From positions 11,780,001 to 11,844,000 of the forward strand of contig NC_087436.1 of the NCBI RefSeq assembly GCF_036321535.1: a DNA stretch of 64,000 nt. The letters are read 5' to 3'. The stretch's first letter is position 1; every line of letters begins with the position of its first letter. The notes under the pieces are model-generated. The model saw only the letters and a program-made list of their open reading frames with translations. It did no database searches and was not told the origin of the DNA. Made by a program: the position numbers and the translations under genes. Source of the DNA: Camelus dromedarius (lineage: Eukaryota). Below, in pieces: positions 14,209-47,544 of this stretch.

Positions 14209-14421
14209 GGTGGGAAGCTGGGGAGAGAGAATTAGGATCGAAGGGGCATTGGGAGTATTTTATTTTTAAGGTGGATTTCTTAGGCATCAATTCTGGAGGG
14301 CAAAGAAGTTACCAGCTGTGTGTAATAGATTAGTAACTGTATGATACTTTTTGCGCTGTATGCCATTTGCCTTGTGTTTGGTGCTATGGAGTCTGCATGC
14401 TATCTATTTTTGGGGTTTTAG

Positions 14422-14618
14422 GTGAGCCTGAATTTAAATACATCGGCAACATGCATGGCAATGAGGCCGTTGGACGGGAGCTGCTCATTTTCCTGGCGCA
14501 GTACCTGTGCAACGAATACCAGAAGGGGAATGAGACAGTGGTCCAGCTGATCCACAACACGCGGATCCACATCATGCCTTCCCTCAACCCAGACGGCTTT
14601 GAGAAGGCAGCATCCCAG
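14422..14618 (+). CDS. CPE: Carboxypeptidase E coding exon 2 (197 nt)
   Basis: ttttag|GTGAGCCT ... TCCCAG|gtgggt; encodes (G)[21 protein letters not shown]...GFEKAASQ with the M14 zinc-binding HxxE motif (HGNE). Confidence 0.98.
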
Positions 14619-15002
14619 GTGGGTGCGGCCCACAGCAGGGCGCTCGCGTTATTTTACGTCTGTCTCGTCTGTGTGCTCATCTATAAGGAATGTGCGCGCA
14701 CGAAGCTGGCAGGGTGCAGGGGAGGGTGTAAGTGGTGAGGTATTCAATTTGCTGATAAGGAAAAAATTCCGAAGGTAAGGGGTACTGGGTGGGTTTCTTC
14801 AGCAGAGATTGCAAATGAGAAATTTTGTTGTTAAGTCAATATTTAATTAATACTTTATTTTCATTGTTAAGTAAATCACATTTATTCATTCACCTTTGCG
14901 ACTAGATAAATTTCTTTCTAAAAATCTAGAAGTCTGAAAAAATAACCTACAGCCATGTAGTGAAGAGTGAGGCCTTTGTTGACTCTGAATTAGGCGATGT
15001 TA

Positions 15003-15021: not shown

Positions 15022-16284
15022 CAAGGAATAAAGATTTTTGGCTACATAACGTTTCACTGTTTAATCCTTGCTTTTATATGATGAATAAAGTAAAAAAAAC
15101 AACAACAAAACCCTCCTATTTCTAAACAAAAACCAATTCGATACATCTTTACTGTTAGAGAAGCTGAAAAGTAATGATGTTTTCAGAGAAGATGTATGAT
15201 ACGTGCTTCCTTCTTTGTTTGGACAGGGGTGGAGGACATTTTATTCCTTGTTACAATTTGAAATAATTTTCTTATGGGAACAAATTAAAGTCTGTATTTA
15301 GTAAGTTAATCTACAGTTAAGAAGTTGATTTGCACTTTAAAAATATAAGATACAGTAACCTGATAGTTTGGCCTTGTAAGAAACCCAGATAGTGAATTTC
15401 TGTAAATACAACATTCATACAATTTCTAAAGTTGTGAGCGACAAATTACAGTAACTTAGAGAATGAAATTATTTACTGTTTTAAGGTGATATTCAGATCT
15501 ATAAGACCGGATGGACACAAAATTATCATTGCTATTTTCTGTCTTACAGGTTTTTATTCTGCACAATTTAAGATTTTATTCTGCACAATCTGAGCTTACA
15601 TGACTTTAGGAATATGGGAATTTATACTATAGATTTAGTATAATTTAATAGCAAAACAAGGAAATCTTCATTATGGAATTTACCTGAATATTGGAAATTT
15701 ATTAAAATTTTCAGATTCTATCATTCGTGAAATGAAGGGTTTAAAATTGAACAGAAATTTTTCAACTTACAAAGTTGAAACAAAAGTTCTAGAGCTCATA
15801 TTTTTTTTCACAGAGACTATGAGAGAGGTATATTATTAATATGTAAATAATTTATGTGAAACTCATTTTAAGCATCTGACCTTTAGTAACTATTCTTTTG
15901 AATATTTAAAAGTAGATTGCTGTGGATTTCAGAGGCAGTGAGTATTTTACTTAAACCAAGTACACAGTGGTGTGCTATGAGACGCACCATCTATTATTAA
16001 CTCATATGGACTGTTTCTGTAGTTTGATGTTAAATATCTTTGAATTATTATAATTATTAATATTTAAAGTATTATTTATTGAAAATGTTATCAAAATATC
16101 CATGACAAATACTTTAAACCTGATACCTTCATGTGTGTATCAGTAAGAAAGTGAAAATGCCATTGTAGGAAGAGATTATTGAAATGAATAATCTTAAGTA
16201 ATTATTATAAAAATCATTAATGAAGACCTTAAATAATGGTAGCAATGATAATAAACTGATGACTTTCCTCTGATATTTTTTTAG

Positions 16285-16452
16285 CCTGGTGAGCTCAAGG
16301 ACTGGTTCGTGGGTCGAAGCAATGCCCAGGGAATAGATCTGAACCGGAACTTTCCTGACCTGGACAGGATAGTTTATGTTAATGAGAAAGAAGGTGGTCC
16401 AAATAATCATCTGCTGAAAAATCTGAAGAAAATTGTGGATCAAAACACAAAG
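16285..16452 (+). CDS. CPE: CPE coding exon 3 (168 nt)
   Basis: tttttag|CCTGGT ... ACAAAG|gtagag; [26 protein letters not shown]...DQNTK with the M14 DLNRNFP motif. Confidence 0.98.
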
Positions 16453-19444
16453 GTAGAGGACATGTATGGTTTTCATGAAATATGTCTGTATCTCTCTCCT
16501 AGTGGAGGACACAGGAGTCCTGTGAAAGCTTGTGGAGGGTTCAGTGGAGCTGTGAAAGCCAAGGCTGGAACCCCTGGGGCCTGGAGGTTAGTCCTGCCCC
16601 TAGGACTAGCCAGGCGTGTAGGGAGGTGGGGGGTAGGGATGGGGACAGGAGGGAGGAAGCCAGTCGTGGGGGGTTTAGAAAGTCTTTCCAGCCTGTTCAG
16701 AGGCCCTTTGTCAGCATATCTGATCAGGTCCGCCAATAGCATTTCACACAGCAGTTTTTCTTCTTTTCCAGAACTTTTTCCTCCTTTGCTTTGCACAACT
16801 CCCCCTACCTCTTATGCTGCCTTTCAAATCACTACTCAGTTTCTTTCCCTGCTTCTTCTGCCTTGGCTTAAACGCTGGCCTTCAGGGCCCCTCTGCTGCC
16901 CCAACTCTCTCCCTTGCTTTCCATCCCCTTGGACCTTCAGTGACATCACTTATACAGAGTCTCCCAGACCTCACCCCCAACTCCCGGTCTCCATGGAGCT
17001 CTGTTTCTCTCTTTTACTTGCTCACCGAACCCCTTTATCTGGTGACACCCAGGGCCTCAAGCTCAACATGATAAGGAACAAGTCTTTCCCTAAGAAAACA
17101 CTGTTCACTCATTTATTCGAACATCAGAGCCTTGATTTTTCCATCTCTGTCACCACTCACTAGCCATGCTTCCAGATCTCAGCGATTTGGCCTTCTGACA
17201 CCCTTCAGTCTTTCCCTCCTCTGCAAACTCAGGCTCTGTCACCTGCTCTGATGAGGTAGGTGGCCCCCATTCTTGGTTTGGGTCCAGCCCCTCCCAACTC
17301 TTCTATCTTCTGAAATTTCTCCAGAGTGATCTTCATACACAAATTATTGCTCTGTGGCTTAAAAAAATCCTAAACTTGCCAGCTCTCCACTGCCCAGAGG
17401 ATAAAGTAGAAACTCAGAATGTCAGAATCGCATGATACCTTAGTGTGAAGACTTTAACCATCTACCTTGGTTAAAAGCCCAGTTCCACTCTTGCTGTGTG
17501 AGTTTTGGAAAGTTGTTTGACCACTCTGTGCTTCTGCTGCTTCACCCGAAATAGGGAGATGACTAACAGTAGTATCCACCTCACAGGTGGTTATGAGGAC
17601 TGAATGCATTAGTTCATGTAAAACGCTTGAGGTTGGGACTTAGAATTGTTATTACCGCGTCAGCATAATTCCTGAGTACTCTGGTAAGTACCACTGAGTG
17701 AGATAGACACACTGACACACCCGCTAAACACTTGGTGCCTTCAAACCAATCCTGTTGAGTACTGTTTTCAGTTCTGTGGAGGCTGGCGAGCCCATCAGGG
17801 CTGAATGGTGGGGACTGCCGGGGGCAGCTCTCAGTGCATCTTGCGTCTTTCCAGGCAATTCTGCTCTGGCTGATCAACTTCTCCTAGGATCTTTCCTAAG
17901 TGAGAATTTGGAAAGAACAGTGTCTCTATTTATTGTAGTTCCAGGGCCATTCAAGTTTCCCGTGGCCCCCGGCAGCCGCCAGCTCACTCACTCCTTAACC
18001 TGGCTTTGATGTTCCATATACTCCGGTCCACACACTCCTTTCTGCTCCCTAAGCGTACCATTTTCTAATACTTTTACGTCTTCGTATGTGCTGCTGTTCC
18101 AGCTGTCTACAGTGCTTTTGCCTCTCCTCCCACGTCACCTCCTCCGTGAAGCCTTCCGCTGCTCTTCCAGATGCATCCTGTGGAGTCTTCCTTTGTGTTC
18201 TTCACATGTACTTCCAGGATAGTGCTTGTAGTTACATAGAGCTTTATATGTGTTATAATCATTTGTTTATACAGCTGTTTTTCTTTTTCAGTCTAGACTT
18301 GAATCCCTCGATTGCAGGAATTACAAATCCTTTTTGAGTCTGACACATAGCAGGCTGACAGCCTGTTACAAATGAGTCCAGTCCAGCCTGGCAAGCAGGT
18401 CACAGTGTCTGAAAGTCCACCTCCTAGTTCCTGACATGCCCTCAGCATGTGGTTGGGACCCTGGGGAGAGGACCCAGGAGAGAGGGAGTCTCAGATCATT
18501 GGCCTAAAGTTCTTAAAATTCTCCTGCCAGTGTTTAGGATTCATTCCAGAAACCTGGGCTGAACCTACAAGCGGGGACTGGTCTGGCAATAGGGCTGCCA
18601 GGGGCTGAGGATTTTGGCAGAACCTGAGAAGTGAATGACTTACACATGCCTGCTTCTGAGTCATAGATTTGCAATTTCGCAGCCCCCAAACCATCTTCCC
18701 TGGGAGAAGGGAGAGCTGGCAGAGCAGAGGGCTGGGGTAACCAGAGGTGAAAGCAGGTCGCCCTGCGTGATAAGCTATGAGGCATAAGACAGAAATGAAG
18801 AACTGTTCTGTTAGCCCAGTGGGGATATACACCCCCAAACTTTCCCCAGTGCTGTCTGTTAAATCTGAGAAACGAGAAAAATAAATCCTATCACCTTATC
18901 ATAGAAGACTCGTGAAATAAACTCATGCTGACAGGATCTTTGATTAGCAGCCTTGGTGCAAATGGCATTATTTTTGGCCAGCACCATCTTCCCCTCCCCC
19001 AGTGGAATCTGTTTGATATTTGCATAATCTTTATATTGGATGTCTCCATACATCTAGTTTAAGGAATACTTTAAAAAAAGATGCCTGTTCATGGTACTTA
19101 AAAATTAGAGCTTTTATTAAAAAAATCTCAATGCCAATGCTTTTTCTGGGTAAAGGTAAAATAAAGGGAAATACATACAAATTAAATTTTAGTCTCTTTT
19201 CTGGAACAGAAACAAGATTTGTTTACGTTATATGAAATCTTCAGTAAACTGCTTGAGTCATGGGTGGGTATTGCCCACATCTGGTCCGTCTCCTTTCCCC
19301 GTCTTTGTCAGTTAGACCGAGACTTTTTGGACCCAGCCTGGTACAAGGTGTATAGTAAGCATTTCATGAGTGTTGTTACACATCCTGCCTTCCTCACTTC
19401 TTCTTAGCCTTATAGAGGTGTGTATGTATGCAGGTATGTATGTA

Positions 19445-24958: not shown

Positions 24959-25189
<231 letters not shown>

Positions 25190-26538
25190 TAAGTGATTTT
25201 GCCTGTAGAAATACATCCGCTGAACAGGAACATCCCCTAACTATGCAGTGTGGCATTGGCATATATATCTGGCAGGAAAAGACTGTAACTTTTGAAAAAG
25301 TTTAGTTTGAAGAGAAATGTGATCTTGAAGAATACTTAGGTAAGAAAAAGGGAGAAAACAGAAGTCGTGAACTTGGGTCAATCTTGGTCCCTGGTAAAAT
25401 GGAAAAATAATAGAATTTATATAGGTTTGTGTACAAGATGGCTTAAAAGTGGAGGCAGCCTTTTGGTGCCTGATTGGGGCCCATTTATATCTCCATGTGT
25501 GTCTTACCTGCACTCACACTTTTGCATTTGGAACTTGTTTCTTGGTGGTGTCAGGGAGGGGCAGTGATGCTTGCTTTTCTTTAATTAGGTTCAGTGAAGC
25601 TTCAGGCACGGCAAACTTTAACCAGATAGATATTTTCAGCTTAATTGCTATTGCTTCAGGAAATTTCGTGCTTTGGATCAATTCTCAGGGGCCTTGGAAG
25701 AGTTAGGTCTTTGTAAACACAGGATAATACTTTTTAGGTATTGGAAACTTTGACTTTTGAAGAGTCTTTGGTAAAACGTCCTTAAAGTTTGGAGATTTTG
25801 TGGTTTGTCAATAGCTGGGAAATTTAAAAGACTGGCATATTTTGTAATACAGAATAAGAATACTATATATCAAAATAGATATTATGTATTTCAGTAATGC
25901 ACATGGGAGACTTTAAAAACTCTAAACTCATACTGAGAATCATGTGTAAGAGTGGTTCATAGTGCCTATGAGGTTGGTCCAGGTCTATTAAAAACATTTT
26001 TTTGATAATTTGTAAACCACTGTCCTTTTTTGGGGGGGAGGGTACAGGTACATTTTTAAAATTAAGAGCTAACAATGAAACCCTCCTTACTGCCTTCCCA
26101 GGTCCAGTTTACCATGAGCTTGCCACCTTTTCTTGTGAGGCTTCCCATTTCATAAGTAGAATGTACATTCTACCCAATTTCTACTTTGTGATATTAGGAG
26201 TGGATGTTAAATAACCTAAAACTTAATTGTTGAGTGCTCCTTTTGCATAGTGATGTAGCTAAAAAATACATCAGCAAGAGATAACACTAAATCACTCTTC
26301 AGAAAATATGCAGTGCTCCTTAGTCTGGCTCAATTTCTTTAGCCTTGTGGGTTTATTTTCTTTTTCTTTATTAAAATTTTTTTTATTATAGTTTGACTCT
26401 ACATACACAATATATTGCATATAAATACATATATACTGTATACTGCACTTTTTTTTTTTTTTAAAGTTTACATATATGTACTAAATGTTGTTTCTGAGAA
26501 CAGGTTAGATCTTCAGCTTGTGGGTTTATTATTTCTAG

Positions 26539-26721
26539 GCAGTGCCCATGAGTATAGTTCCTGCCCTGATGACGACATCTTCCAGAGCCTGGCGCGGGCG
26601 TACTCGTCCTTTAACCCCCCGATGTCGGACCCGGACCGGCCCCCGTGTCGCAAGAATGATGACGACAGCAGCTTCGTGGAGGGAACCACCAATGGCGCCG
26701 CGTGGTACAGCGTGCCTGGCG
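26539..26721 (+). CDS. CPE: CPE coding exon 5 (183 nt)
   Basis: ttctag|GCAGTG ... GGCG|gtgaga; [60 protein letters not shown]. Confidence 0.97.
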
Positions 26722-27624
26722 GTGAGACTCCGTTTCGCTCTTTTGAGGATGTGATTAGCGGCTTTAAAATAATTACCATTTATATTTAGAGAGACTTCAG
26801 TCCTCCTCAGTTATTAAGAAATAGACTGAACCTGTAGTTCATTCATTAAAATTAGTCAGCATGAATGATTGCTGTCTACGGGTTTTTTGTTGTTGTTGAT
26901 TTTTAAAAATCAAGATGCTAGCTGAAGAGCTATAGGAAACGAACTGAAGACGTCCACTGGAAAACTGTAAATCGAACATCGTTAATTACCCTACTTTTCA
27001 AATTCTGGCCTTAGAGAATAATGAAGCATCCTGATTGCGTGTTAGTCATGCTTTACCTGCAGGTAAAGGTGTATTTTAGACGGCAGACTTTGGACTTTAG
27101 CATACCTTGGTCCAATACCTTTTTGTGCTTGTTTAATGGTAGGATAATGGGGACTACATGATACGGAATATTTATTTTGTATTCACTACGGCGGTAAGCG
27201 CTAATGGTAGATCAGGACGCTCTGCACCTTTTAACAGTTCTGAAAAGGCAAAAGCCCACGCGCAGCACAGCTGGAGGGGGCGTCTCTAGCCACCAAGGCA
27301 GCCCTCCTGGCTCTCTGTTCCTGTGTGGATTTTGCAGAGTTCTCATTTTTCTGGTTGCCTCGACCACTTACAGCTGTGTGGTATCACCTCTACCAAGGAT
27401 GAAGAATGAAGTGTCAAGATGTTGATATGTATTTTTCCCCTCTGCCTAAGAGCAATTTTTTATGGTTCACCTGGAAGTGAAAAGAAGGATTAGTTAGGAC
27501 AGTAGCAGCAGTAGCTAATTATAGGATTAATTTATTTAATTTGCTTTTATTGTTGTTGTTGTTGAATTAGGCCCTGAGAAAAATATTATTCCTGATTTTT
27601 TTCTTTATGATATATATCTATTCT

Positions 27625-30010
27625 GTTTTTTAAAAATTGAGGTATAGTTGATGTACAGCATTATATGTTACAGGTACACAACATGGTGGTTCATAATTTT
27701 TAAAAGTTGTTCTGAATTTATGGGTATTATAAAATGTGGGCTATATTCTGTGCTATGCAATATATCCTTGTAGCTCATTTATTTTATACATAGTAGTTTG
27801 TACCTCCTAATTACCTACCCCTATCTTGCCCCTTCCCTTGTCCCTCTGCCCACTGGTAACCACTAGTTTGTTCTCTATATCCATGAGTCTGTTTTCTTTT
27901 TTGCTATATCCACTGGTTTGTTTTATTTTTTAGATTCCACGTATAACTGATATCATACAGTGTTTGTCTTTCTCTAACTTATTTCACTGAGGTTAATACT
28001 CTCCAAGTCCATCCATGTTGTTGCAAATGGCAAATTTTTATTCCTTTTTATAACTGAGTAGTATTCCATTATATATATATATGTATGTATACACACACAT
28101 ACACATACATACACCACATCTTCTTAATCAATTTATCTGTTGTTGGACACTTAGGTTGCTTCCACATCTTGGCAATTGTAAATAATGCTGCTAGGGATAT
28201 TAGGGTGCCTGTGTCTTTTTGAATTAGTGTTTTTGTTTTTGTTTTTTGGCTATATACCAAGGAAATATAGCCAAATTGCTGGGTCACATGGTAGTTCTAT
28301 TTTTAGGTTTTTGAGAAACCTCCATACTGTTTTCATAGTAGCTACACCACTTTACCAATTTACATTCCCACCAACACTGTAGGAGGGTTCCCTTTCCTCC
28401 ACATTGTTGCCATCGTTGGTTATTTGTGTTCTTTCTGATGATAGTGAGGTGATACCTCCTTGTGGTTTTCATTTGCATTTCTATGATGATTAATGATGTT
28501 GAGCATTTTTTCATTTGCCTGTTGGCCATCTGTATTTCTTCTTTGGAAAAATGTCTTTTCAGGTCTTCTGCTCATTTTTTAATTGAGGTGCTTGGGTTTT
28601 TGATGTTGAGTTGTTTAAGCTATTTATATATTTTGGATATTAGCCCCTTATCAGTCATATCATTTGAAAATATTTTTTCCCATTCTGTAAGTTGTCTTTT
28701 TGCTTTGTCAGTGGTTTCCTTTGCTGTGCAAAACTTTTAGGTTTAATTAGATCCCACTTGTTTATTTTTGCTTTTGTTTCCTTTGCCTGAGGTGGCAGAT
28801 CCAAAAAAATATTGCTACAACTTATGTCAAAGATTGTTCTATGTTTCCTTCTAGGAGTTTTATTGGTTTCAGGCCTTACATTTAGCTCTTTAATCCATTT
28901 TGAGTTTATTTTTGTATATGGTATTAGAAAATGTTCCAATTTCATTCTTTTACATGTAGCTGTCCAATTTTCCCCAGCTCCGCTCAGAGAAAAGACAATC
29001 TTTTCAATATTATATATTCTTACCTCCTTTGTCATACATTAGTTGGCCGTAAGTACATGGGTTTGTTTCTGAGCTCTTATTCTGTTCTATTTACCTATGT
29101 GTCTGTTTTTATAACAGTGCCATACTGTTTTGATTACTGTATTACTTTGATTGATTTGTAGATATTGAAAAATCCTTGCATCCCTGAGATAAATCTCATT
29201 TGATCCTCATGTACGATCCTTTTAGTGTATTGTTGGAGTCGGTTTGCTAGAATTTTATTGAGGATTTTTGCATGTATGTCCATCAGTGATACTGGCCTGT
29301 GACTTTCCCTTTTTGTGATATCTTTGTCTGGTTTTGGTATCAGGATGATGGTGCCCTCATAGAACGAGTTTGGAAGTATTCCTTCCTCTGCAATTTTTTG
29401 GAATAGTTTCAGAAGGAAAGGTGTTAACTCTTCTCTAAATGTTTGGTAGAATTCACCTGTGAAGCCATCTGGTCCTGGACTTTGTTTGTTGGGAGTTTTA
29501 GAATTCCTGATTCAATTTCAGTGCTCCTAATTTGTCTGTACACATTTTCTGTTTCTTCCTGGTCCAATCTTGGTGATTATGACTTCCTAAGAATTTGTCC
29601 ATTTCTTCTAGGTTATCTATTTTATTGGCATATAGTTGTTCATAGTAGCCTCTTATGATCCTTTGTATTCCTGTGATGTCAGTTGTAACTTTTCCTTTTT
29701 CATTTCTGATTTTATTGATTTGGTCCCTCCCGCCCCCCTTTTTTGATGAATCTGGCGAAAGGTTTATCAATTTTATCTTTTTAAAGAACAGGCTTTTAGT
29801 TTCATTGATCTTTTCTGTTGTTTTTTTTTAAAGTCACTGTCGAATTTATTTCTGCTGTGATACGATTTCTTACCCTCTACTAACTTTGTAAGGTTAGGTT
29901 ATTTATTTGAGATTTTTCTTGTTTCCTGAGGTAAGCATGTATTACTATAAACTTCTCTCTTAAAACTCCTTTCTCTGTGCCTCATTGTGTTTTCATTTTT
30001 GTTTTTCTCT
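27625..30010 (-). mobile_element. L1 (3'UTR plus ORF2) with an internal deletion at about 29150
   Basis: Minus ORFs 28069-28287, 28284-28529, 28655-29035 and 29498-29770 are L1 ORF2 pieces; alignment to the + L1 jumps from about 37150 to about 36275. Confidence 0.9.
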
Positions 30011-30469
30011 CTAAACAGCCAACACTCATAGCAGTTTGGGGAAGGGTGTCCGAGCTCAGTGAAAGCGATCCTATAGGCACCAACAGCATCCACTAATCAT
30101 TTAGATTAGGTTCAAATTGAAATTATTCTGGATTCAGATCTTCTCTTTGGTGCAATTTGAAGTATTATTATCATTATGTCTTATACCTAAGATAGTCAGT
30201 GATTGTTGAATTAATACATAGTATGATATCAAGACACCCAGTCTGTCAGAAGTACACTGTGGTCCTGGTTGGACTTAAGGAACAGAAGAGTGTGTCAGAT
30301 CAGCTTACATAACATACCTTACATCTTACATGATCTCCAAGCTCTTCGTTGATAGAAAGATAGGCTTAAGGGAACACACATTCACTAGGAGGCCAGCAAT
30401 GATCAGTCTTTTACCCTGTTGTCTTCTTTTTAAAACTTTTTAGTAGTATTTATTTATCATTTTAACGAT

Positions 30470-31180
30470 TTTATTATTTTTTCCAACTTTATTGAAATTA
30501 ATTAACATATAACATTATGTAAGTTTAAGGTGTACAATATAGTGATTTGAAACATGTATGTATTGCAAAGTGATGACCACAGTAAGGTGGGTAATACATC
30601 TCTCACCTGAAATAATAGACATTTTTCTTGTTTTGTGGTGAGAACATTAATGATCTACCCTCAGCAACTTTCGAGTATGTAATACAGTATTGTTAACTGT
30701 AGTCACCATGCTGTACATTACATGTCTAGAACTTACTCATCTTATAACTAGAAGATGGTACCCTTTGACTGACATCCCTTCAATTCCCCCACCCCCAGCG
30801 CCTGGTAACCACCACTCTACTTTGTTTCTATGAGTTCTACTTATTTAGAGTCTGCATACAAGTGAGATCACACAGTATGTGTGTTTCTCTGACTAATTTC
30901 ACATAGCATAATGCCCTCAAGGTCCATCCATGTTGTCACAAATGGAAGGTTTTCTTCTTTTTATGGCTGAATAACATCCCATGGCATGTATATACCACTT
31001 CTCCTCTATCCTTTCATCCACTGATGGACACTCAGTTGCCTCCACATCTTGGCTACTGTGAAAAACGCTGCAGCAAACACGAGAATGCAGGTATCTCTTC
31101 AGGATTCTGCTTGTATTTCCTCTGGATATACATCCAGAAGTGGGATTGCTGGATCATATGATAGATCTACTTTTAATTTG
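30470..31180 (-). mobile_element. L1 3' end (L1MA-like)
   Basis: ctttattgaaattaattaacatataaca...ggtccatccatgttgtcacaaatgg...gggattgctggatcatatg. Confidence 0.85.
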
Positions 31181-34012
31181 GTAGGTACTTTAATAAGTAC
31201 TTTTATGTAATTAGTACTTTTCACTTGTATTCACTAAGCATTTCACCAAGTACATTATCTAATCTTCCTGAACTTTAATGGTAGCAGTGATGATCTGATG
31301 ATGTATGATCTAATTCGCTGTTGACAATCTTTCCAAACTGAATTTGGCTCTACTTACTTAGATTAAAATCTCAAGTCCCTTTTGAATAAAGCACCCAAGA
31401 TAATAAAACAAAGTGATATCTGGAAAGAAAATCATGCACTCTTAACAACAACTCATTTTTGGCTTTTTCCTCAGGAAACATACAAACAAATGTTGGACCA
31501 GATACTTCTAAATTGAGGGTCTATAGACTAGATTAACTCTTGTCACAATAGTAGAATGTACTAAATGTAATATTTTGAATTAAAAAATCTAGATTCTAAG
31601 GGCATTACAGCATATAACTATGGGAAAGCTAATAAGCTAATATGGAGTATTTCTTTCCAGACTGATGAATATATAACCCAATAATCTTTAAAGGGTTGTA
31701 GAAAATGTTTGATGATACATAAATGGATAACTAGGAGAAATTTTGATGTAGGAGTAGAGCAAGAAACTAAAAAAATTGTCTACACTATAATTAACATGCC
31801 TCTTTAATTAATTCAGTCAACACTTGAGTATGTCTATATGCCAGATGCTAGAGACAGAGGGTCCTCTCAGTCCCGGCTCCTCACTGCTTCTCAGCTCTGC
31901 CCTCTCTTCTCCACTCCTGTTTCTACCACCCTACATCAGATCCTGTGCTCTCTGGTAACTCCAGTGTCCTCTTGTCTGACCCTCGCCCCACTTTTGGTCC
32001 ACTCTGCACAGAACTACTTGGTAGCCACTCTCCAGAAACGGTCCTTACTAAACACCTCTGTGGTCTCCACACCTTACGAGTGCCCGCCCCCAGGGAGTGG
32101 GAGCTGGCCCTGGGTAGCCCACAGGTGGTGGTGGAGGCGGCGCTGTGGGGCTTCTGAAGCTGGGTCATAAGACACCTTTCAGCTTTCTCTCTGGTCTCTT
32201 GAAATGCTCATTTGGGGGAAGCCAGAAGTCATGTAAGAAGGCTGATTACTGGAGATGACAAGCTATAAAGAGACCCAAGCTAGTCACAGAGAGGAAGGGG
32301 AGAGGGAAAGGGAGAGAGATGCCAACCAGCCCCAGCCCAGGAGCCAGACAAGCGAGTGAAGGGACCACCCTGGATGTTCCAGGCACACAAGACACCATGT
32401 GCAGAAGGACTGATGCCTCAGATATATGCTCCAGGAGAACCACACCAGAGCCATGTCTCCAGCCTTTCAAGCCAGCCCAGCTGCAGCCCTGGGCACTGGG
32501 GAGCAGAGACAAGCTGTCCCCATGTGCCCTGTATGAATCCTGCCCATGTATTGTGAGCATAATAATATGGTTATTTCGTGTCTCTACATTTTGGGATGGT
32601 TGTTACACAGCAGGAGAAAACCAGAACAGCTTCTGTGACATTTCCACAGTGCAGCTATCATCATGCCATCCTCCTCCTGTCACAGCCTCATCATCACTGG
32701 GATAAAATCAACTTTCTTTGATGTGGCTGAGAAGGTACCTTATGTCATCTTCCCATTTTATCTCCTACCACTCTGCCAACACGGTCTGAACTCTAATCTC
32801 ACCGAACCAACTGAATGCACTCATTCTCTCACACCTTTTACACTTACATATTCTGTTCTCTCTGCCTGGACTGCCCTTCTGATTCTTACCCACCCCTATT
32901 TTGCTGGCAAACTCATATTCTCTTTTAAAAACTTGCATCACACATCTGAGCCGCGCTGACCTCCCATCTCTATCCCAGGAATGATTAAATGCTCCTACTG
33001 GGCCCCACAGCAGTCTGTGATCATCTGTTACCTCACTGGCTGTTCCTCTAGTCATGAGTAAAGAATTTTATTTTGTTAATCTTCTCATATCTAGCACTCC
33101 ACGACAGTGTCTGCCACACAGTAGGCACTCAAAGTGTGTCCATTAAATACAAATAGTAGTGTCTTCCTCTCCTCTGTATTTCTAGGATGCTAAGATTGTA
33201 CATCTCCCAAACACTTTCCCATAATTTTTCTTATGAAAACTATTAGAGGAAATGTGTCTTATTGCCCCCAAGCAGGATGAATATCCTTGGGGAAGAGAGC
33301 TAAAGTTTATACAATTTTAAATGCAAGACATACAAAGGAAAAACTCGTTTCACTTCCTCCAAATGCAGCGTGTTCATAAGCTTTTGTGCCCTGATTTCCA
33401 CAGGCTACAAAACCTACTGAAAGAATAAACCCATGAAGAGAAGCTTCTCTCTCCAGTGATCGGGTGGCTGACAAAGGCAACCTCAGGTGCAGAGAGACAG
33501 AGGCCCCAACCAGACGAAGCAGCTGCACAGGCTCTGAAGGGGAGAGAAGCCTGGGAAGGGTGGGATGTGAGCCTCAAGGGCTAAATCTAAAGGAAGAGGC
33601 TCAGTCTGGAGTAGCTAAACTTGGCTACCCTGGGTGACTTCTTCCAACTCACAAGGTGGTGAAATCACTTGGCTTGAGAACATTGTGTTTACATCACAAT
33701 TCTTTCAGGTGTCTAGCTGTGGGGAGAATGCCAGTTCCCCAAAGGCCCCTGTTTCAGACTGTTTAATATTTGCAGGCTCCTGCTGTGGGTCAAGTACAAA
33801 ACCCCAGTGTCTGACGATTTCGGGAAGCTCCTCAGGAGTGAGGACACACAGTCATTTACACAACCGACTAGTCAACTGGCTGCGTTTCTCAACTTCCAGC
33901 TCAAAGATCACTGGCTGTCACTACACATACAGGATCACAAAGTTACAAAACAAAGCAAAAGAAAGGAAAAATACGGTGTCACTGTACACTGCGAAAAGAA
34001 AACTACTCTCAC

Positions 34013-34122
34013 CTTCTCTCCTGAGGAAATGGTAAATTTGTCGCTCGAGATTAAGCTGCACACTTGCTCAGTGTCGAGGTTGAGAAATTCCTCACTGAGC
34101 ACGACGTCTGCAAAATGCTGCT
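34013..34122 (-). pseudogene. KLHL2: Orphan duplicated exon of KLHL2 (Mayven), BACK domain, unprocessed fragment
   Basis: Minus strand: ttttctctgtaatctccaaacag|AG CAG CAT TTT ... GAG AAG|gtgagagt; 110 nt encoding EQHFADVVLSEEFLNLDTEQVCSLISSDKFTISSGEK, matching recalled KLHL2 EQHFADVVLSEEFLNLGIEQVCSLISSDKLTISSEEK; no other kelch-family exon seen in the window. Confidence 0.88.
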
Positions 34123-34306
34123 CTGTTTGGAGATTACAGAGAAAATCCATTAACACCAGCATTCTGTTCTGGAAGGGTACTTTTAAGAACTGAAAAGATA
34201 AGCCACAGACTGGGAGAAGATCTTTGCGAAACACAGCTATAACCAAAGACTAGTATCCAAAAAAGTTCAGCAACAAGAAAATAAACAACCCTATTAAAAA
34301 TGGGCA

Positions 34307-37300
34307 TCTAAAATGCATTTGAAATTAAAAGATCAGCAACTTAAAACAATCATTTATATTTATAGATTTCTATACCAAAACCTTATGGTAACCACAAACC
34401 AATGTAACTCTACAGCCATCAAACCACAAGAATAGAGAACAAAAAGAAGAAAGAGAGAGAAAAAAAAAAAAGACCTAAAAATAAACCAAACAGTGAACAA
34501 AATGGCAATAAGAACATATGTATCAATAATTACCTCAAATGTAGATGGATGAAATGTTCCAACCAAAAGACATAGACTGGCTGAATGGATACAAAAACAA
34601 GACCCATTTATATGCTGTCTACAAGAGACCCACTTCAGAGCTAGAGACATATGGAGGCTGAAAGTGAGGGGATAGAAAAAAATATTCCATGCAAACAGAA
34701 ACCAAAAGAAAGCTGGAGTAGCAATACTTATATCAGACAAAATAGATTTTAAAATAAAGACTGCTACAAGAGACAAAGAAGGACACTACATAACTCTCAA
34801 GTGATCAATCCAAGAAGACAGAAGAATTGTAAATATATACGCACCCAACGTGGGAGCACCTCAATATATAAGGCAATTGTTAATAGATGTAAAACATAAA
34901 AAGAAATCAACAATAACATTATAATAGTGGGGGACCATAACACCCCACTTACATCAATGGACAGATCATCCAGACAGAAAATCAAAAAGGAAATACAGTC
35001 CCTAAATGACACCAGATGGACTTAATTGATATCCATAGAGCATTCCATCCAAAAGCAACAGAATACACATTCTTCTCAAATGCATGTGAAACATTTTTCA
35101 GAATCGGTCACAAGTTGTCCCACAAAACAAGCCTCTGCCTCAGTAAATTTAAGAAAATTGAAATCGTACCAAGCATCTTTTCCAACCACAATGCTGAGGG
35201 ATAGGAATCAACTACCAAAAACAAACAAACAAAAAAACCCTGCAAAAACTGTAAACACTTGGAGTTTGCAATATGGAGTAAACATGTGGAGTAAACAATA
35301 TGTTACTAAACCACCAATGGATCACTGAAGAAATCAAAGAGGAAGTCAAAAAATACTTTGAGACAAATGAAAATGAAAACACAATGATCCAAAACCTCTG
35401 GGATGCAGCAAAAGCAGCTCTAAGAGGGAATTTTATAGTGATACCAGCCTACCTCAGGAAATAAGAAAAATCTCAAATAAACAACCTAACCTTATACCTA
35501 AAGCAACTGGATAAAGAAGAACTAACAAACCCCAAAGTCAGTAGAAGAAATCAAAAAGATTAGAGCAGAAATAAATGAAATAGAGACTGAAAAAAATCAA
35601 TAGAAAAGATCAATGAAACTAAAAGCAGGTTCTTTGAAAAGGTAAACTAAATTGATAAACCTTTAGCCAGATTCGTCAGAAAAGGGGGGCAGGAGGGACC
35701 AAATCAATAAAATCAGAAATGAAAAAGGAAAAGTTACAACTGACATCACAGGAATACAAAGGATCATAAGAGGCTACTATGATCAACTATATGCCAATAA
35801 AATAGATAACCTAGAAGAAATGGTCAAATTCTTAGAAAGTCATCATCTGCCAAGATTGGACCAGGAAGAAACAGAAAATGTGTACAGACAAATTACCAGT
35901 ACTGAAATTGAATCAGGAAGTTTAAAACCCCCAACAAACAAAAGTCCAGGACCAGATGGCTTCACAGGTGAATTCTACCAAACATTTAGAGAAGAGTTAA
36001 CACCTTTCCTTCTGAAACTATTCCAAAAAATTGCAGAGGAAGGAACACTTCCAAACTCGTTCTATGAGGCCACCATCATCCTGATACCAAAACCAGACAA
36101 AGATATCACAAAAAGGGAAAATCACAGGCCAATATCACTGATGAACATACATGCAAAAATCCTCAACAAAATAGTAGCAAACCGACTCCAACAATGCGTT
36201 AAAACGATCATACACCATGATCAAATGGAATTTATCTCAGGGATGCAAGGATTTTTCAATATCTGCAAATCAATCAATGTGATACAGCACATTAACAAAT
36301 GGAAGAATAAAAACCATATTATCATCTCAGTAGATGCAGGAAAAGCTTTTTATAAAATTCAACATCGATTTGGGATAAAAACTCCGCAGAAGGTGGGCAT
36401 AGAGGGAATATACTTCAACATAATGAAGGCTGCATATGACAAACCCACAGCTAACGTCATACTTAATGGTGAAAACCTGAAAGCATTTCCTCTAAGGTCA
36501 GGGACAAGACAAGGATGCCCACTCTAACCACTTTTATTCAACATAGTTTTGGAAGTCCTAGACATAGCAATCAGAGAAGACAAATAAAGGGAATACAAAT
36601 CAGAAAAGAAGTCAAACTGTCACTGTTGATGGATGACATGATACTATACATAGAAAACCCTAAAGAATTGACCAGAAAACTCCTAGAGCTCATCAGTAAA
36701 TTTGGTAACGTTAAAGGATACAAAATTAATATACAGAAATCTGTTACGCTTCTATACACTAGGAAAAAATAGCAGACAAAGAATTAAGGAAACAATCCCT
36801 TTTACCATCATACCAAAAAGAATAAAATACCTACCCAAGGAGGCAAAGGACCTGTACTCCAAAAACCATAAGACTCTGATGAAAGAAATTGAAGATGGCA
36901 TAAACAGTTTGAAAGATATCTTGTGTTCCTGGATTGGAAAAATCAATATTGTCAAAATGACCATACTATCAAGGCAATATACAGATTCAATGGAACGGCT
37001 GTCAAATTACCAATGACATTTTTCACAGACCTGGAACAAAAAAAAAGTTAAAATTTGTATGAAAATACAAAAGACCCCAAATAGCCAAAACAGTCTTGAA
37101 AAAGAAGAATGGAGCTGGGGGAATCACGCTCCCTGACTTCAGACTATACTACAAAGCTACAGTAATCAAAACTTTATGGTATTGTCACAAAAACAGACAC
37201 ATAGATCAATATGGAACAGGATAGAATATCCATAAATAAACCCACACACTTATGGTCAATTAATCTATGACAAAGGAGGCAAGCATGTACAATAGAGGAA

Positions 37301-38170
37301 AGACAGTCCCTTCAACAAGGGGTGATGGGAAAACTGGACAGCTACCTGTAAAAGACTGAAATCAGAACATTCTCTAACACCGTGTACAAAAATAAACTCA
37401 AAGTGGATTAAAGACTTAAATGTAAGACTGTATACTATAAAACTTCTAGAGGAAAACACAGGCAGAACACTCTTTGACATAAATCACAGCAATATTTTTT
37501 CAAACCAGCTCCTACAGTAATGGAAATAAAAGCAAAAATAAACAAATGGGATCTAATTAAACTTAAAAGCTTTGGCACAGATAAGGAAACTATAAACAAA
37601 ATGAAAACACAGCCTACAGAATGGGAGAAAATATTTGCAAATGATGTGACCAACAAGGGACTAATTTCCAAAATATACAAACAACTTGTACAGCTTAAAA
37701 AAAAAAAAGCAACCTAATTGAAACATGGGCAGAAGACCTAAACAGACATCTCTCCAAAGAAGACATCCAGATGGCCATCAAGCACATGAAAAGATGCTCT
37801 ACATCACTAATTGTTAGAGAAATGCAAATCAAAACTACAAAGAGATATTACCTCACACCAGTCAGAATGGCCATCATTTAAAAGTCTACAAATGATAAAT
37901 GCTAGAGAGGGTTAGAGAAAAAGGAACTCGCCTATACTGTTGGTAGGAAAGTAAATTGGTGCAGCCACTATGGAGGACAGTATGGAGGTTCCTTAAAAAA
38001 CTAAAAATAAACTTACCATTTGATCCAACAATCCCACTCCTGGGCATATATCAGGAGAAAACTGTAATTCAGAAAGACACCTGCACCCCAGTGTTCACAG
38101 CAGCACTATTCAGAATAGCTAAGACATGGAAACAACCTAAATGTTCATCAGATGACTGGATAAAGAAGTG

Positions 38171-38201
<31 letters not shown>

Positions 38202-38615
38202 CACAACAGAATAATACTCAGCCATAAAAAAGAATAAAATAATGCCATTTGCAACAACATGGATGGACTAGAGAATGTCATTCTAAGTTAAGTAAGCCAG
38301 AAAGAGAAAGAAAAAAATACCATATAATATCACTTATATGTGGAATCTAAAGAAAAGGACACAAATGAACTTATCTACAAAACAGAAACAGATTCACAGA
38401 CATAGAAAACAAACTTGTGGTTACCAGGGAGTAAAGGGGATGGAAAGGGATAAATTGGGAATTTGAAAATTGCACCTCCTGGGGAGTGATGGAAATGTGA
38501 GCTATCCTGATTGTGGTGGTGGTTTTATTGGTGTATACATCTATCAAAATTCATCAAATTGTACATCTGAAATATGTGCAGTTTACTGTACAGGAATCAT
38601 AGCACAATAAAGGTG
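34307..38615 (+). mobile_element. 4.3-kb L1 with full-length but frameshifted ORF2, nested in an older L1M fragment
   Basis: ORF2 start ATGGCAATAAGA at 34502; EN, RT ([26 protein letters not shown]) and C-terminal pieces; TSD ttaaaaat(t)gggca at 34294-34306 and 38616-38629; host L1M at about 34190-34306 resumes at 38630-38760. Confidence 0.95.
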
Positions 38616-38759
38616 TTAAAAATTGGGCAAAGGATCTGAACAGACACCTCACCAAAGAAGAGATATAGAAGACAAATTAGCGAATGAAAAGATGCTCAAC
38701 TTCATAAATCAATAGAGAACTGCATATTAAAATATCAGTGAGATCCCACTACATACTTA

Positions 38760-41700
38760 CAGCGTACAAATCTTTCATCTCCTTGGTTAAATTTATTCCT
38801 AAGTATTTTATTGTTTTTGATGCTATTGTAAATGACTTTATCTGTTTTTTGGATAGTTTATTTTTATATATATATATAAATAAATATATATGTGCATATA
38901 TATATATGCAACTGATTTTTGTATGTTGGTTTGATATCCTGCAACTGTAATAAATTCTCTTACTAGTTCTAACAGTATTTGTGTCTGTGGGGTCTTTAGG
39001 ATTTTCTGTATGTGAGATCATATCATCTACAGACAGAGATAATTTTACTTCTTCCCTTCCAGCTTGGATGTCTTTATATTTCTTGCCTTATTTCTCTGGC
39101 TAGGACTTTCTAGTACTATGTTGAATAGGAGTGCTGAGTAGGCACTCTTGTCTTTTTCTTGTTATTAGAGTAAAAGCTTTAAATCTTTCACCATGGAGTA
39201 TGATGTCATATCATATATGGACTTTACTTATGGGCTTGTCATATATGGACTTTATTGTGTTAACATCTGTTCCTTTTATACCCAGTCTGTTGAGGGTTTT
39301 TATCATGAAAAAATGTTGAATTTTATCAAATGCTTTGTCTACATCTTTTGAGATCATCGTATCATTTTTATCTTTCATTCTATTAATGTGGTGTATTTAT
39401 TGATTTGTGTATGTTTAACCACCTTTGCTTCTCAGGGATGAATTTCATTTGATTGTGGTATATGATTTTTTTTAATGTGCTGTTGAATTCAGTTTGCTAG
39501 TGTTTTTTTGTTTGTTTGTTTTTAGAATTTTTGTGTCTATGCATCAGAATAAGTAACCTGTAAATTTTCCTGTAGTCTCCCTATCTGACTTTGGAGTCAG
39601 CACAATGTTGGACTTGTAAAGAGTTTAGGAGTGTCCCCTCCTCTTCAGTGTTTTGGTTGAGTTTGACATGGACTGGTGTTAATTTTTCTTTAAATGTTTG
39701 GTAGAATTTACCAGTGAAACCATCTGGCCCTGGGCTTTTCTTTTGGGGAAGTTTTTGATTACTGATTCAATATCCTTACTAGTAATTGGTCTGTTTCAGA
39801 TTTTCTGTTTCTTCATGGTTCAGTCTTGGTTGGTTGTATATTTCTTGGAATTTATCCATTTCTTCTAGGTTAGCTGTTGGCTTATAGTTGTTCACAGTAG
39901 TCTTTTTTGATCCTTTGTATTTCTGTGATATTACCTGTAATGTCTCCTCTTTAATTTTTTATTTTTTTGAGTCCTTCTTTTTTTCCTTGGTAAGTCTAGC
40001 TCAAGGTTTGCCTATATTGTTTTTATTTTCAAAAACCAACTCTTAGATTTATTGATCTTTTCTGTTGTTTTTTCGATCTCTATTTCATTTATTTCTGCTT
40101 TGATCTTTATTATTTCCTTCCTTCTGCTAACTTTGGGCTTGATTTTTTTCTTTTCCCAGTTCTTTAAAGTGTAGGGTTAAATTGTTTATTTGAGATATTT
40201 CTTTTTTCTTAATGTGAGCATTTATCATAATTAACTCCTCTCTTCAAACTGCTTTTGCTGCATCCTATAAATTTTGGTATGTTGTATTTCTATTGTCATT
40301 TGTTCAAGATGTTTTGGTTTCCTTTTGATCCATTGGTTGTTAGAGATTGTGTTGTTCATTTTTCTACACGTTTGTGAATTTTCCAGTTTTCCTCCTGTTA
40401 TGACTTCTAGTTTCGTGTCAGTGTGGTTGAAAAAGATACTTTCTATGACTTCAGTCTACTTTGGTTTGCTAATAAGCTTTGCTTTATGATTTATACGATT
40501 TATCCAGGAGAATGTTCCATGTGTGCTTGAGAAGAATGTTTAATGTACAGCTGTTGGATGGTATGTTCTGTATGTCTGTTAGGTCCATTTGGTATGAAGC
40601 ATAGTTCAAGGCCAGTGTGTCCTTACTCATATTCTGTCTGGATGGTCTGTTTATCCATTATTGAAAGTGGGGTATTGAAGTCCCCTACCATTATTGTACT
40701 GTTGTCTATTTCTCCCTTCAGATTTGTATTTACTTAATGTATTTAGATGCTCCAATGTGGAGTACTTATGTATTTTTGATAGTTATGTCCTTTGATGCAT
40801 TGACCCCTTTATCAAAATGACCTTCTTTGTCTCTTGTTACAGTTTTTGGCTTAAAGTGTATTTCAGATAAGTATGGCTACCTCTCCTCTCTCTTGGTTTC
40901 ATAAGCCTGGAACACCTTTTTCCATCCCTTCACTTTGAGCCTATGTGTGTTCTTAAAGCTGCAGTAAGTTTCTTGTAGGTAGCATACGGTTGGGTCTTTT
41001 TTTTTTTATCCATTCAGCCACTCTATGCCTTTTGATTGGAGAATTTAATCAATTTAGATTTAAAATAGTTATTGATAGGTAAGTACTTACCATCTTACTG
41101 TTTTCTGTTTTGCAGTTCCCCTATTCCTTTCTTCTCTTCTTGCTCTCTTGCTTTGTGAATGATGATTTTCTGCAGTGGTCTGTTTTAATTCCTTTCTCTT
41201 CAACTTTTTTGACTCTACTGTAGGTTTTTGGTTTATGGTTACCATGAAGCTTACATAAAACATCTTACAGCTTAACAGGCGGTTTTATGTTGTCGACAAC
41301 CTAACTTTGACTGCAAACAAAAAGTCTACCCTTTGACATCCCTCCCGTGACATATAAAATGATATTTTGATGTCACAGTGTACATCTTTCCATATTGTGT
41401 GTATCCATGAACAAATGATTGTAGCTATAGTTACTTTTAATATTTCTTAACGTTTATACTAGACTTAAGTGATGAATACACAACCATATTACAGTGTTAG
41501 AATGGTCTGAATCTGACTACATACTTACCTTTACCAGTGTGTTGTATATTTTCATATGTTTTCATGTTACTAATTAGGTCTCTTTTGGCACCAAGCTGTG
41601 CCACCTTAGAGAAGGGGTGATGCAGATACAGTGAACCTGTTCCTCTTACTCCCTTCAGTGTGTCCAATCTTGAATTATTTTTATTTTTTGCTCCAGTGGT

Positions 41701-41810: not shown

Positions 41811-42146
41811 TGCACGCTTCGATGAAGTCACTCCCTGTTGTGGTCGGGGAAGCTGCTTGCAGCGGCGTGGAATGTGGCTGACCGCTCTAGCACCCTGCAG
41901 CGGCAGTGCGTTGCGCTAAGTGACAGCTTAAGAACCCGAGAGAGTTTGTGCCTGTGCGGTGGTAACTGTCTCCCGAGTGTGTGGTCCCATCCCTTATGAC
42001 AGGTGATTTCCCTTGCAGTTTCCCACAGTCTCCCTGAAATGCACTGGCTGGTACACCTTTCCTTGGCTTTCAGTTCAGCAGAACAGCCTGTGTAGCGTTT
42101 TAGTCACCACACGCCTGTTTTGACTTTTCATTCGGTGTTTTGACAG

Positions 42147-42286
42147 GAATGCAAGACTTCAACTACCTCAGCAGCAACTGCTTTGAGATCACCGTGGAGC
42201 TTAGCTGTGAGAAGTTCCCGCCCGAAGAGACCTTGAAGAGCTACTGGGAGGATAACAAGAACTCCCTCATTAGCTACATCCAGCAG
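42147..42286 (+). CDS. CPE: CPE coding exon 6 (140 nt)
   Basis: tgacag|GAATG ... CAGCAG|gtaagc; [47 protein letters not shown], catalytic Glu in ITVELSC. Confidence 0.98.
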
Positions 42287-42599
42287 GTAAGCGGTCTCCA
42301 GCGTATAGTGAGAGACTTGAGAGCATTTAAACCGGGTGCACGATAGTCTCCTAAGAGGATCCCAGTCTAGGGGAATCCATCGGACCCAGAATGAGGACAC
42401 GGCATTTGGAAAATGTGTCATTAGTGGTTCAAATAGGCTGTCATTTGTCATAGGTGTTGTGGTTCATGAATATGCTAAGAACTGGTTAAACTGGAGAGTT
42501 GCCGAGAGTGGGGGGGAAAGAACCCCTGTTTTCTTTCATATTGCACTGAGCAAGGGCGACCCTCCTTCCCCCTGATCACCTTGGGTCTGTTGGGCATCC

Positions 42600-46980: not shown

Positions 46981-47444
46981 AGAAGTACTCCCAGAATATA
47001 TCCTTTTCTCTATAAAGAACAAGTATTGAAGGGCTGTAATGTAAGATCTTGTTAACTGACAGTGGGCATGTAAAGTAAACACAAGTGACCACATTTATAA
47101 TAGAAAGCAATGAAATGTGTGAAGACCAGAACTATTTTACAGAGTTAACAGACTTACTTTTTTTGTTTCATTTTTTTGTTTTGTTTTGATGGTTTGGAAG
47201 ATACTGCAGGGTCTTTGACTCAGAACAAGACACCGGTTTTCAGGGGGTTACTTCTCATTTGCCTGCTTGAGAAAAAGCAGAGTAAAGAGTGCACAAAAAA
47301 ATTCAGTGACTTTTGGAGCATATTTTGATTCTTAAACAAGGGAGATCTGCAGTATTTTGCTAGAAAATCAGGAGATGCTTGATAGGAAGCATGTTTTTAG
47401 GTTGTTTCTAATATGAATGTCTTGGTTCTTCTTGACCTTCACAG

Positions 47445-47544
47445 ATACACCGAGGAGTTAAAGGATTTGTCCGAGACCTTCAAGGTAACCCAATTGCCAA
47501 CGCAACCATCTCCGTGGAAGGAATAGACCATGACGTCACATCCG
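47445..47544 (+). CDS. CPE: CPE coding exon 7 (100 nt)
   Basis: tcacag|ATACAC ... TCCG|gtgggt; [33 protein letters not shown], start of the transthyretin-like domain; not in the ORF track, read by hand. Confidence 0.97.

Follow-up and report, generated by a model that had tools for sequence, protein, structure and literature searches.

A break in a long interspersed element (LINE) is reportedly repaired in mouse cells by gene conversion from ectopic LINE copies, as Tremblay, Jasin and Chartrand are said to have found in 2000, and Moran et al. are said to have described exon mobilization by the LINE family L1, with 3′ transduction, in 1999. Pairs of a pseudogene and its parent gene are known to exchange sequence by gene conversion. 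Closest to the case described here are the class 2 templated sequence insertions (TSIs; templated sequence insertion polymorphisms, TSIPs), which a review on the subject treats as patches, taken from a remote locus, that repair a break (Onozawa & Aplan, PMC5110952). The locus in question is a stretch of 64,000 nucleotides from the dromedary, Camelus dromedarius (hereafter the window; positions 11,780,001-11,844,000 of the forward strand of contig NC_087436.1, here called C1, in a genome of 2.3 Gb). Within it a single 110-nt exon of KLHL2 lies on the minus strand inside an intron of CPE, the gene for carboxypeptidase E. From its sequence the segment looks like a decaying, non-functional KLHL2 gene fragment that was copied in inverted orientation into CPE intron 5. 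We give somewhat better than even odds, about 0.55, to an origin at the DNA level, by ectopic break-repair synthesis or replicative template switching seeded in the homeology between L1 elements.

Read on the minus strand from 34122 to 34013, the exon and its borders have the sequence tctccaaacag/AGCAGCATTTTG...GGAGAGAAG/gtgagagt, that is, a pyrimidine-rich stretch with a CAG acceptor at one end and an AAG/GTGAGA donor at the other. The encoded peptide, QHFADVVLSEEFLNLDTEQVCSLISSDKFTISSGEK, covers approximately amino acids 183-219 of the 593-residue KLHL2 protein. The stop-to-stop open reading frame (ORF) that contains it (window:33938-34249:-) matches the Pfam family BACK with an E value of 1.7e-7 and 31.7 bits (cut-off 20.9); among the 128 ORFs scanned between 27.0 and 42.1 kb, six had a match to any family, this one included. 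Sequence, translation and Pfam match agree with the exon, splice sites and BACK-domain peptide described in the original prediction, which had been made from the letters alone. The corresponding exon of the parent gene encodes ...NLGIEQVCSLISSDKLTISSEEK and differs from the copy at 9 of 110 nucleotides, all transitions, four of them non-synonymous and five synonymous. The four amino acid changes that had been noted against the human peptide (G>D, I>T, L>F and E>G) are real differences between the window copy and its parent, and the view of a decaying copy was right. On the acceptor side the copy equals the parent across all of the retained intron bases (42/42), while its donor differs at position +6 (GTGAGA vs GTGAGT).

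The exon is part of a much larger block of homology. Genome searches and local BLAST returned one partner that was neither the segment itself nor a repeat: the 3,538 bp from 30627 to 34164 are an inverted copy of KLHL2 genomic DNA at C1:11,649,998-11,653,965, about 164 kb upstream on the same contig, with an identity of 93.9% (3,293 of 3,508 aligned bases, 215 differences, Kimura two-parameter distance (K2P) 0.0645). The full inverted alignment, window 30471-34164 against C1:11,649,998-11,654,114, includes an L1 terminus of other origin that is discussed below. By its length and identity the block is a segmental duplication in the usual working sense of the term, at least 1 kb at 90% identity or more. 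Copied were 42 nt of one intron, the exon for part of the BACK domain, the greater part of the intron that follows and, from within that intron, the body of an L1 fragment. The interval of 31200-34300 over which homology had been expected was close to the actual extent of 3.54 kb, which runs further to the left and takes in only 42 nt of upstream intron. With these 42 nt and 3.3 kb of downstream intron retained, a processed (retro)pseudogene is rejected, as the original prediction had already argued from the intron flanks.

The parent belongs to KLHL2. A protein search with the parental ORF gave E values ≤0.001 for 113 of 134 candidates, and all specific names listed were kelch-like protein 2 or KLHL2, the rest being generic or unnamed. 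The 593-residue KLHL2 protein maps exon by exon to the plus strand of C1 between 11,574,963 and 11,673,298. The parental exon (C1:11,650,040-11,650,149), which lies inside the 3.5 kb of collinear homology, is intact and in order between the exon for amino acids 126-182 and that for amino acids 218-259, the latter starting only ~200 bp past the end of the copied interval. The identity to the KLHL2 protein is 75-97% for the neighboring exons on C1, with a single one of the ten below 84%, and 58-83% for those of a paralogous locus on contig C3. By these comparisons the nearest relatives belong to KLHL2 and not to KLHL3 or another member of the KLHL family. The stray member of the pair is the window copy and not the parent at C1:11.65 Mb; the pseudo-exon is a single exon outside an intact gene, flanked by L1 and CPE intron sequence with no neighboring KLHL2 exons, and no further piece of the 40 kb around the parent was found in the window above repeat-level identity. 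The assignment to KLHL2 is thereby upheld. Because the parental exon exists and differs from the copy, the segment is neither an identical, mis-assembled duplicate nor the only copy of the exon in the species. The block is real and common in the organism, since 85-90% of its sampled words are present in 14 DNA-type runs from at least seven studies. A protein collection searched with the ORF of the copy yielded 17 matches, the best at 83% and covering no more than 65% of the query; the copy itself is not among them, and the result is uninformative on other species.

The parent contains an extra 416 bp (C1:11650788-11651203) that are absent from the copy. Because these form a 5′-truncated L1 3′ end with AATAAA and an A run, they represent a later insertion into the parent, after the duplication; a cryptic intron spliced out of the copy was considered for the same 416 bp and rejected for these features.

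Other KLHL2-related matches are recorded here in their own right. An inverted match between window 1228-1881 and C1:11631228-11631874, within a KLHL2 intron, shows 89% identity over 661 bp. Since the same parental stretch also matches several other window positions at 68-80%, the two partners are 3′ ends of fairly young L1 elements, and the match is no further piece of KLHL2 origin. The KLHL2 exon for approximately amino acids 10-53 has at least seven further exon-sized matches on other contigs, with 77-86% amino acid identity (C33:1337091-1337219, C35:232443-232571, C31:1052069-1052194, C27:26683142-26683273, C26:25594840-25594968, C82:2448402-2448533 and C96:501853-501981). Several of these lie near contig ends or on small contigs, and they may form a dispersed duplication family of that exon. 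Finally, protein P0104 (199 amino acids, from a contig of another source) is an ORF that spans several KLHL2 exons, with no introns between them, before it degenerates; in appearance it is a processed pseudogene of KLHL2 from some other organism, unrelated to the present copy.

The left junction of the block falls within L1 sequence. Identity to the parent drops abruptly from 98% (30631-31195) to 72.6% (30471-30626, 156 nt, K2P 0.34). The switch point lies at about 30612-30640 in an A-rich stretch, and the two L1 3′ ends are collinear and remain in register across it. Since the terminal 156 nt are not derived from the parent, the KLHL2-derived segment is taken as 30627-34164. The sense-strand 3′ end of the composite lies at 30471, 17 nt past AATAAA. 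Compared with genomic L1 3′ ends, the terminus of the copy reaches 75-79% identity over its full length and up to 85% in partial matches. The L1 of the parent is bracketed by its own duplication (AAGTACTTA..AAGTACC; score 12.5, reached by 22 of 500 shuffles), the 3′ copy of which is excluded by the left edge at 30471. Because of this bracketing, the sequence indicates that the parental terminus is native and that of the copy foreign. A comparison of ten related L1 copies was uninformative as to which terminus is native, nine of the ten matching both comparably and one (L034) giving no usable match.

A terminus of 75-79% identity followed by a degenerate A-rich tract is what would be expected of an old resident element. 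Positions 30471-30626 most likely represent an old L1 that was already present at the CPE target, and the same resident of the CPE intron would most simply account for the AATAAA with its short A run as well as for the degenerate A-rich stretch. The alternative reading of the left edge as an RNA 3′ end, generated by premature polyadenylation at the intronic L1, is overturned by the finding that the terminal 156 nt are not parent-derived.

At the other end, the edge is sharp at 34164, 42 nt past the exon. In an alignment with four L1 copies and the nested element L1-B (Table 1), the last bases of the block, AGCATTC, overlap the AGC-TTC of the L1 family directly before TGTTCTG. The right junction is a microhomology join, AGC(A)TTC, into a pre-existing L1 that lacks its upstream part. 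No target-site duplication was detected around the block, the best flank-to-flank score being 7, a value reached by 171 of 500 shuffles. The nested L1-B, by contrast, still shows its flanking duplication, and its best genomic copies are 87-93% identical over 100-180 bp. Homology beyond the block edges was also searched for with indels allowed and rejected, as 839 of 1000 shuffles and, at the right edge, 113 of 1000 reach the observed scores. As to endonuclease sites of the TTTT/A type, TTTTAA words occur in both flanks. A canonical L1 retrocopy or class 1 insertion is disfavored by the lack of a target-site duplication and of an untemplated poly(A) tail placed 10-30 nt past a polyadenylation signal of the donor transcript, the AATAAA terminus not being donor-derived (72.6% vs 98%) and the tract that follows it containing 56% A. 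Twin priming from the same RNA was likewise rejected, as the inverted neighbor L1-C has no match above 84% genome-wide and none at the parent.

Table 1. Features of the KLHL2-derived block and its surroundings (window coordinates)
Feature	Position	Strand	Basis or remark
CPE exon upstream of the host intron, approximate limits	26538..26810	+	P0182 amino acids 209-297
Single-copy left flank (CPE intron)	30011..30422	.	query 30011-30470 had no genomic match besides itself (1 match, 1 candidate)
Degenerate A-rich stretch, read as decayed tail of the resident L1	30423..30470	-	56% T on the plus strand, 48 nt, counted by eye
L1 3′ terminus with AATAAA and short A run, not parent-derived, most likely a resident L1 (L1-R)	30471..30626	-	72.6% to the parental terminus, beside 98% sequence
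L1 body fragment copied from the intronic L1 of the parent	30627..31195	-	98% to C1:11653401-11653965 vs 73-77% to other L1 copies; second comparison 97.5%
Copied KLHL2 intron downstream of the exon, including the 5′ target-site duplication of the parental intronic L1	31196..34012	-	K2P 0.073 over 2,790 aligned intron bases
KLHL2-derived pseudo-exon, 110 nt, part of the BACK domain	34013..34122	-	translation, alignment to parent, Pfam BACK
42 nt of parental upstream intron including the CAG acceptor	34123..34164	-	42/42 identical to parent; sharp end of homology at 34164
Old L1 ORF2 C-terminal fragment adjoining the block (L1-C, part 1)	34165..34303	+	41 matches, best non-self 84%
Younger 5′-truncated L1 nested in L1-C (L1-B)	34304..38624	+	~11 bp flanking duplication AAAAATGGGCA / AAAAATTGGGCA; RVT_1 35667-36769
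L1-C, part 2, resuming after L1-B	38625..38770	+	L1-B ruler 3424-3543, 73%
CPE exon downstream of the host intron, approximate limits	42134..42325	+	P0182 amino acids 266-330

The differences between copy and parent are not evenly spread. The longest identical runs measure 246, 177, 157, 138 and 100 nt, the first of them at 30823-31068. In 2000 simulations the longest run averaged 93.5 nt and never exceeded 220, and the five observed runs of 100 nt or more compare with a simulated mean of 0.37 and a maximum of 4. We read the clustered differences and long identical runs as gene conversion, and the mosaic suggests that copy and parent exchanged sequence after the duplication. Assuming a neutral rate of 2.2e-9 per site per year, the overall K2P of 0.0645 places the duplication at roughly 15 million years. 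The 25 of 35 hundred-base bins that hold at least four differences (mean 8.1 per 100, ~0.086) give an age of about 20 million years. Because the parental peptide equals KLHL2 of other mammals at the changed positions, all four amino acid changes lie on the branch of the copy. The exon has diverged by 8.2%, which is not below the 6.9% of the intron, and the copy is for this reason judged to be without sign of constraint. The pairwise ratio of non-synonymous to synonymous rates, a comparison that had been suggested as a check, could be computed (0.18, from four non-synonymous and five synonymous changes) and was left out of the evidence on selection, with too few sites and a constrained branch mixed with a free one.

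We propose the following model for the formation of the copy. A break or a stalled fork would have occurred in the 3′ end of the old L1 resident in the CPE intron, followed by in-register pairing with the homeologous, oppositely oriented L1 fragment in the KLHL2 intron. DNA synthesis of ~3.5 kb would then have run out of the L1 and through the KLHL2 intron and exon, until the microhomology AGC(A)TTC joined the new strand to the second end of the break, which lay in a different old L1 fragment; any sequence between the two ends would have been lost. Thereafter the copy would have drifted neutrally and exchanged tracts with its parent by gene conversion. A DNA-level event is favored because it explains together the in-register switch, the synthesis of 3.5 kb, the microhomology, the missing duplication, the old-looking tail and the donor at 164 kb. 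The features of a break-repair patch are present, namely the lack of a duplication, the microhomology on the right, the shared A-rich stretch on the left and a donor at C1:11.65 Mb. An inverted donor only 164 kb away on the same chromosome fits local template switching. We estimate that random retrotransposition would land so near with a probability of the order of 10^-4 (400 kb of 2.3 Gb).

A number of points weigh against this model. The copy ends 17 nt past an AATAAA, which is a hallmark of polyadenylated RNA, and template switching by a reverse transcriptase would also give an in-register L1/L1 chimera. With only ~73-77% identity the two L1 termini are poor partners for homologous pairing, and A-rich microhomology may have contributed more than homeology to the in-register switch. 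The duplication that brackets the L1 of the parent is only modestly significant (22/500 shuffles). That an L1 was resident, that target DNA was deleted and that synthesis ran in the direction proposed are all things that we infer. The L1 surroundings are not fully explained, L1-A2 being an internal fragment, L1-C lacking both ends and L1-D its 3′ part, and several steps, or a more complex course of events, may lie behind this landscape. The alternation of identical with diverged tracts could arise partly from alignment trouble near indels or from cross-talk between paralogues during assembly polishing.

The original prediction had left the choice between a local inverted genomic duplication and one derived from pre-mRNA. 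The first part stands, as the copy is local, inverted and genomic, while an origin in pre-mRNA is the less likely one, judging by the junctions. It would require that the L1 machinery reverse-transcribed a fragment of unspliced KLHL2 pre-mRNA and that the product was inserted in a non-canonical way, without the L1 endonuclease or with a deletion at the target. Reverse transcription might have started on the poly(A) end of an L1 RNA and switched in register to the L1 within the KLHL2 intron RNA, which would account for the L1/L1 chimera; the terminus, however, resembles only old L1 copies and not the L1 family that was active at the time of a ~6%-diverged event. A second route, premature polyadenylation of the pre-mRNA at the intronic L1 signal, is contradicted by the terminal 156 nt, which do not come from the L1 of the parent. 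The position of the sense-strand 3′ end, 17 nt past AATAAA and before an A-rich stretch, is what one would look for in a reverse-transcribed RNA, although the stretch is a degenerate one, with 56% A in 48 nt. A truncated 5′ end joined by microhomology is shared with many L1 5′ junctions. Human templated insertions include both trans-mobilized polyadenylated fragments of intronic or intergenic sequence and duplication-free break patches, according to the review (PMC5110952). Against this, the missing target-site duplication makes a non-canonical integration necessary, and a donor at 164 kb is very unlikely for a process that integrates genome-wide, again by our estimate of the order of 10^-4. 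Taken together, we regard an RNA intermediate as unlikely, at perhaps one chance in five.

The copy might alternatively be the remnant of a larger inverted duplication of the KLHL2 region of which deletions, recombination between L1 copies and new L1 insertions left 3.5 kb. Broken L1 pieces are crowded together at the site, and L1-D and L1-A1 are collinear and could be the two parts of a single element that ~9.6 kb of inserted material has separated. The abrupt switch of identity within the L1 could in this case be a later recombination scar. Against this history, the window contains nothing else from the 40 kb around the parent above repeat level, both edges of the block are sharp and the left flank is single-copy. 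This history seems to us a good deal less probable than one through RNA.

The L1 pieces around the block deserve a description of their own. To the left, 460 bp of single-copy sequence are preceded by a minus-strand L1, of which L1-A1 (27631-29141, minus) is a 3′ part ending at about 27631; L1-A2 (29137-30009), an internal L1 fragment, shares 85% identity with L1-B. To the right, L1-D (38770-41156, minus) lacks its 3′ part and is collinear with L1-A1, and these could be the halves of one old L1 separated by the ~9.6 kb that include the KLHL2 block. A flanking duplication for L1-A, by which the left flank could have been proved ancestral, was looked for and not found. L1-B contains the end of ORF1 and the start of ORF2 at ~34489, its longest open frame being 286 amino acids. 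Two short (TA)n / (CA)n microsatellites are located at 38160-38200, in the 3′ region of L1-B, and at 38865-38910, at the border of L1-C and L1-D.

It follows from the anatomy of the locus that the copy is transcribed passively, in antisense, within the CPE pre-mRNA, as the original prediction had pointed out; any consequence of this is speculation. RNA-labeled runs hold 0.24-0.37 of the sampled words of the block as contigs, and two more hold 0.06, figures that are uninformative on strand, splicing and expression. Because the acceptor context is unchanged and the donor still reads GTGAG, the exon may be recognizable to the spliceosome. We think it improbable, at well under one chance in ten, that the fragment is anything but inert, whether as an inverted repeat still converting with its parent, as a source of double-stranded RNA from antisense CPE transcripts or through splicing of the minus-strand exon. 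If it were so, the inverted repeat (3.5 kb, 164 kb apart) could pass damaging changes on to the BACK-domain exon of KLHL2, or an inversion between its two arms could disrupt KLHL2 as well as CPE. In neuroendocrine cells, where CPE pre-mRNA is abundant, this transcript would carry kilobases of near-perfect antisense to KLHL2 pre-mRNA, and the nuclear double-stranded RNA formed by the two could be edited or could dampen KLHL2 expression.

Slightly less probable again, and in our opinion very hard to sustain, is a functional element in the strict sense, an exon spliced into a minus-strand transcript or a CPE antisense sequence that pairs with KLHL2 RNA and modulates it. The acceptor context identical to that of the parent and the preserved GTGAG suit the former, whereas a 110-nt exon without reading-frame context, and with no promoter or partner exon evident, does not. 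For the latter, the copy lies in antisense within a transcribed intron and equals the parent in 40 stretches of 21 nt or more, up to a maximum of 246 nt. The exon has nevertheless diverged no less than the intron (8.2% vs 6.9%), and all four amino acid changes occurred on the branch of the copy, at positions that are the same in the parent and in KLHL2 of other mammals. An assembly artefact, a mis-placed or duplicated piece of the KLHL2 contig, is scarcely credible, as nothing specific speaks for it beyond the possibility that polishing across paralogues produced near-identical tracts, while 215 of 3,508 aligned sites and a 416-bp indel distinguish the two copies and the junction-bearing block is found at 85-90% of its sampled words in the 14 DNA-type runs from at least seven studies.

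The host gene is CPE. Peptidase_M14 exons are found on the plus strand of the window, one of them 97% identical to carboxypeptidase E over its whole length; carboxypeptidase D proteins among the same matches are 52-76% identical to the window exon. With the CPE protein, exons were mapped at ~14397-14621, 16240-16455, 24968-25111, 26538-26810, 42134-42325 and 47439-47543. The block lies, antisense to CPE, in the 15-kb intron between the fourth and the fifth of these, in keeping with the location that had been predicted. We take this intron to be CPE intron 5, as in the prediction, on the assumption that exon 1 precedes the window. Between KLHL2 and CPE an exon of the fatty-acid-hydroxylase family, assigned at the level of the family only, was found on the plus strand at C1:11,695,989. 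This exon and its place in the order are consistent with the arrangement KLHL2-MSMO1-CPE known from human. The common orientation of the three genes that had been proposed is also seen, KLHL2, the exon compatible with MSMO1 and CPE all lying on the plus strand of C1.

Gene-fragment duplicates, templated insertions and pseudo-exons are already well known. A literature search on KLHL2, CPE and duplication, judged by titles and the opening lines of abstracts, turned up nothing on the present copy. The locus offers a clean and datable case of a single exon with working-looking splice signals planted in the intron of a neighboring gene, and annotation pipelines may mis-call such pseudo-exons. Judging by the in-register L1/L1 chimera and the microhomology, local templated insertions may be seeded by dispersed L1 fragments and take unique gene sequence with them. 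Should the mosaic reflect ongoing conversion, the fragment would be a possible source of mutations in the BACK domain of KLHL2. It is also a possible substrate for an inversion between KLHL2 and CPE. All of these consequences are potential ones.

How does this locus compare with the systems mentioned at the outset? As is reported for the experiments of Tremblay et al. (2000), a broken L1 would have used a non-allelic L1 donor, with synthesis that runs on and is finished by end joining. Those were experiments in mouse cells, whereas ours is an evolutionary inference in which the L1 partners are only ~73-77% alike; moreover, 3 kb of non-L1 donor flank, intron and exon, were carried along here. 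The copy resembles converting pairs of pseudogene and parent in being decayed, partial and close to its parent, and in the way in which identical tracts alternate with diverged ones. It differs from them in consisting of one exon only, in tracts whose direction is unpolarized, and in that an effect on KLHL2 is speculation.

With L1-mediated exon mobilization and the class 1 TSIs of the review (PMC5110952), the copy has in common an exon and intron flanks beside the 3′ part of an L1 with a terminal AATAAA and A run. Unlike these, it has neither a flanking duplication nor a pure, untemplated poly(A) tract, and its L1 terminus is not that of the donor. The AATAAA-plus-A end, listed by the review under class 1 (PMC5110952), seems in our case to belong to the resident L1. 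The parallel with class 2 TSIs is closer, in that the copied stretch includes intronic sequence, a target-site duplication is lacking and microhomology of the end-joining type is present. The KLHL2 copy departs from that class in its local (164 kb) and inverted donor, in one junction that lies in register inside L1 homeology, and in an insert of 3.5 kb that appears to be common or fixed in the species. The review favors RNA templates (PMC5110952), while for the KLHL2 copy we judge a DNA template likelier. Of some interest at this locus are the junction seeded in register within L1 and an apparently continuing exchange between the copy and the exon-bearing interval of its parent.

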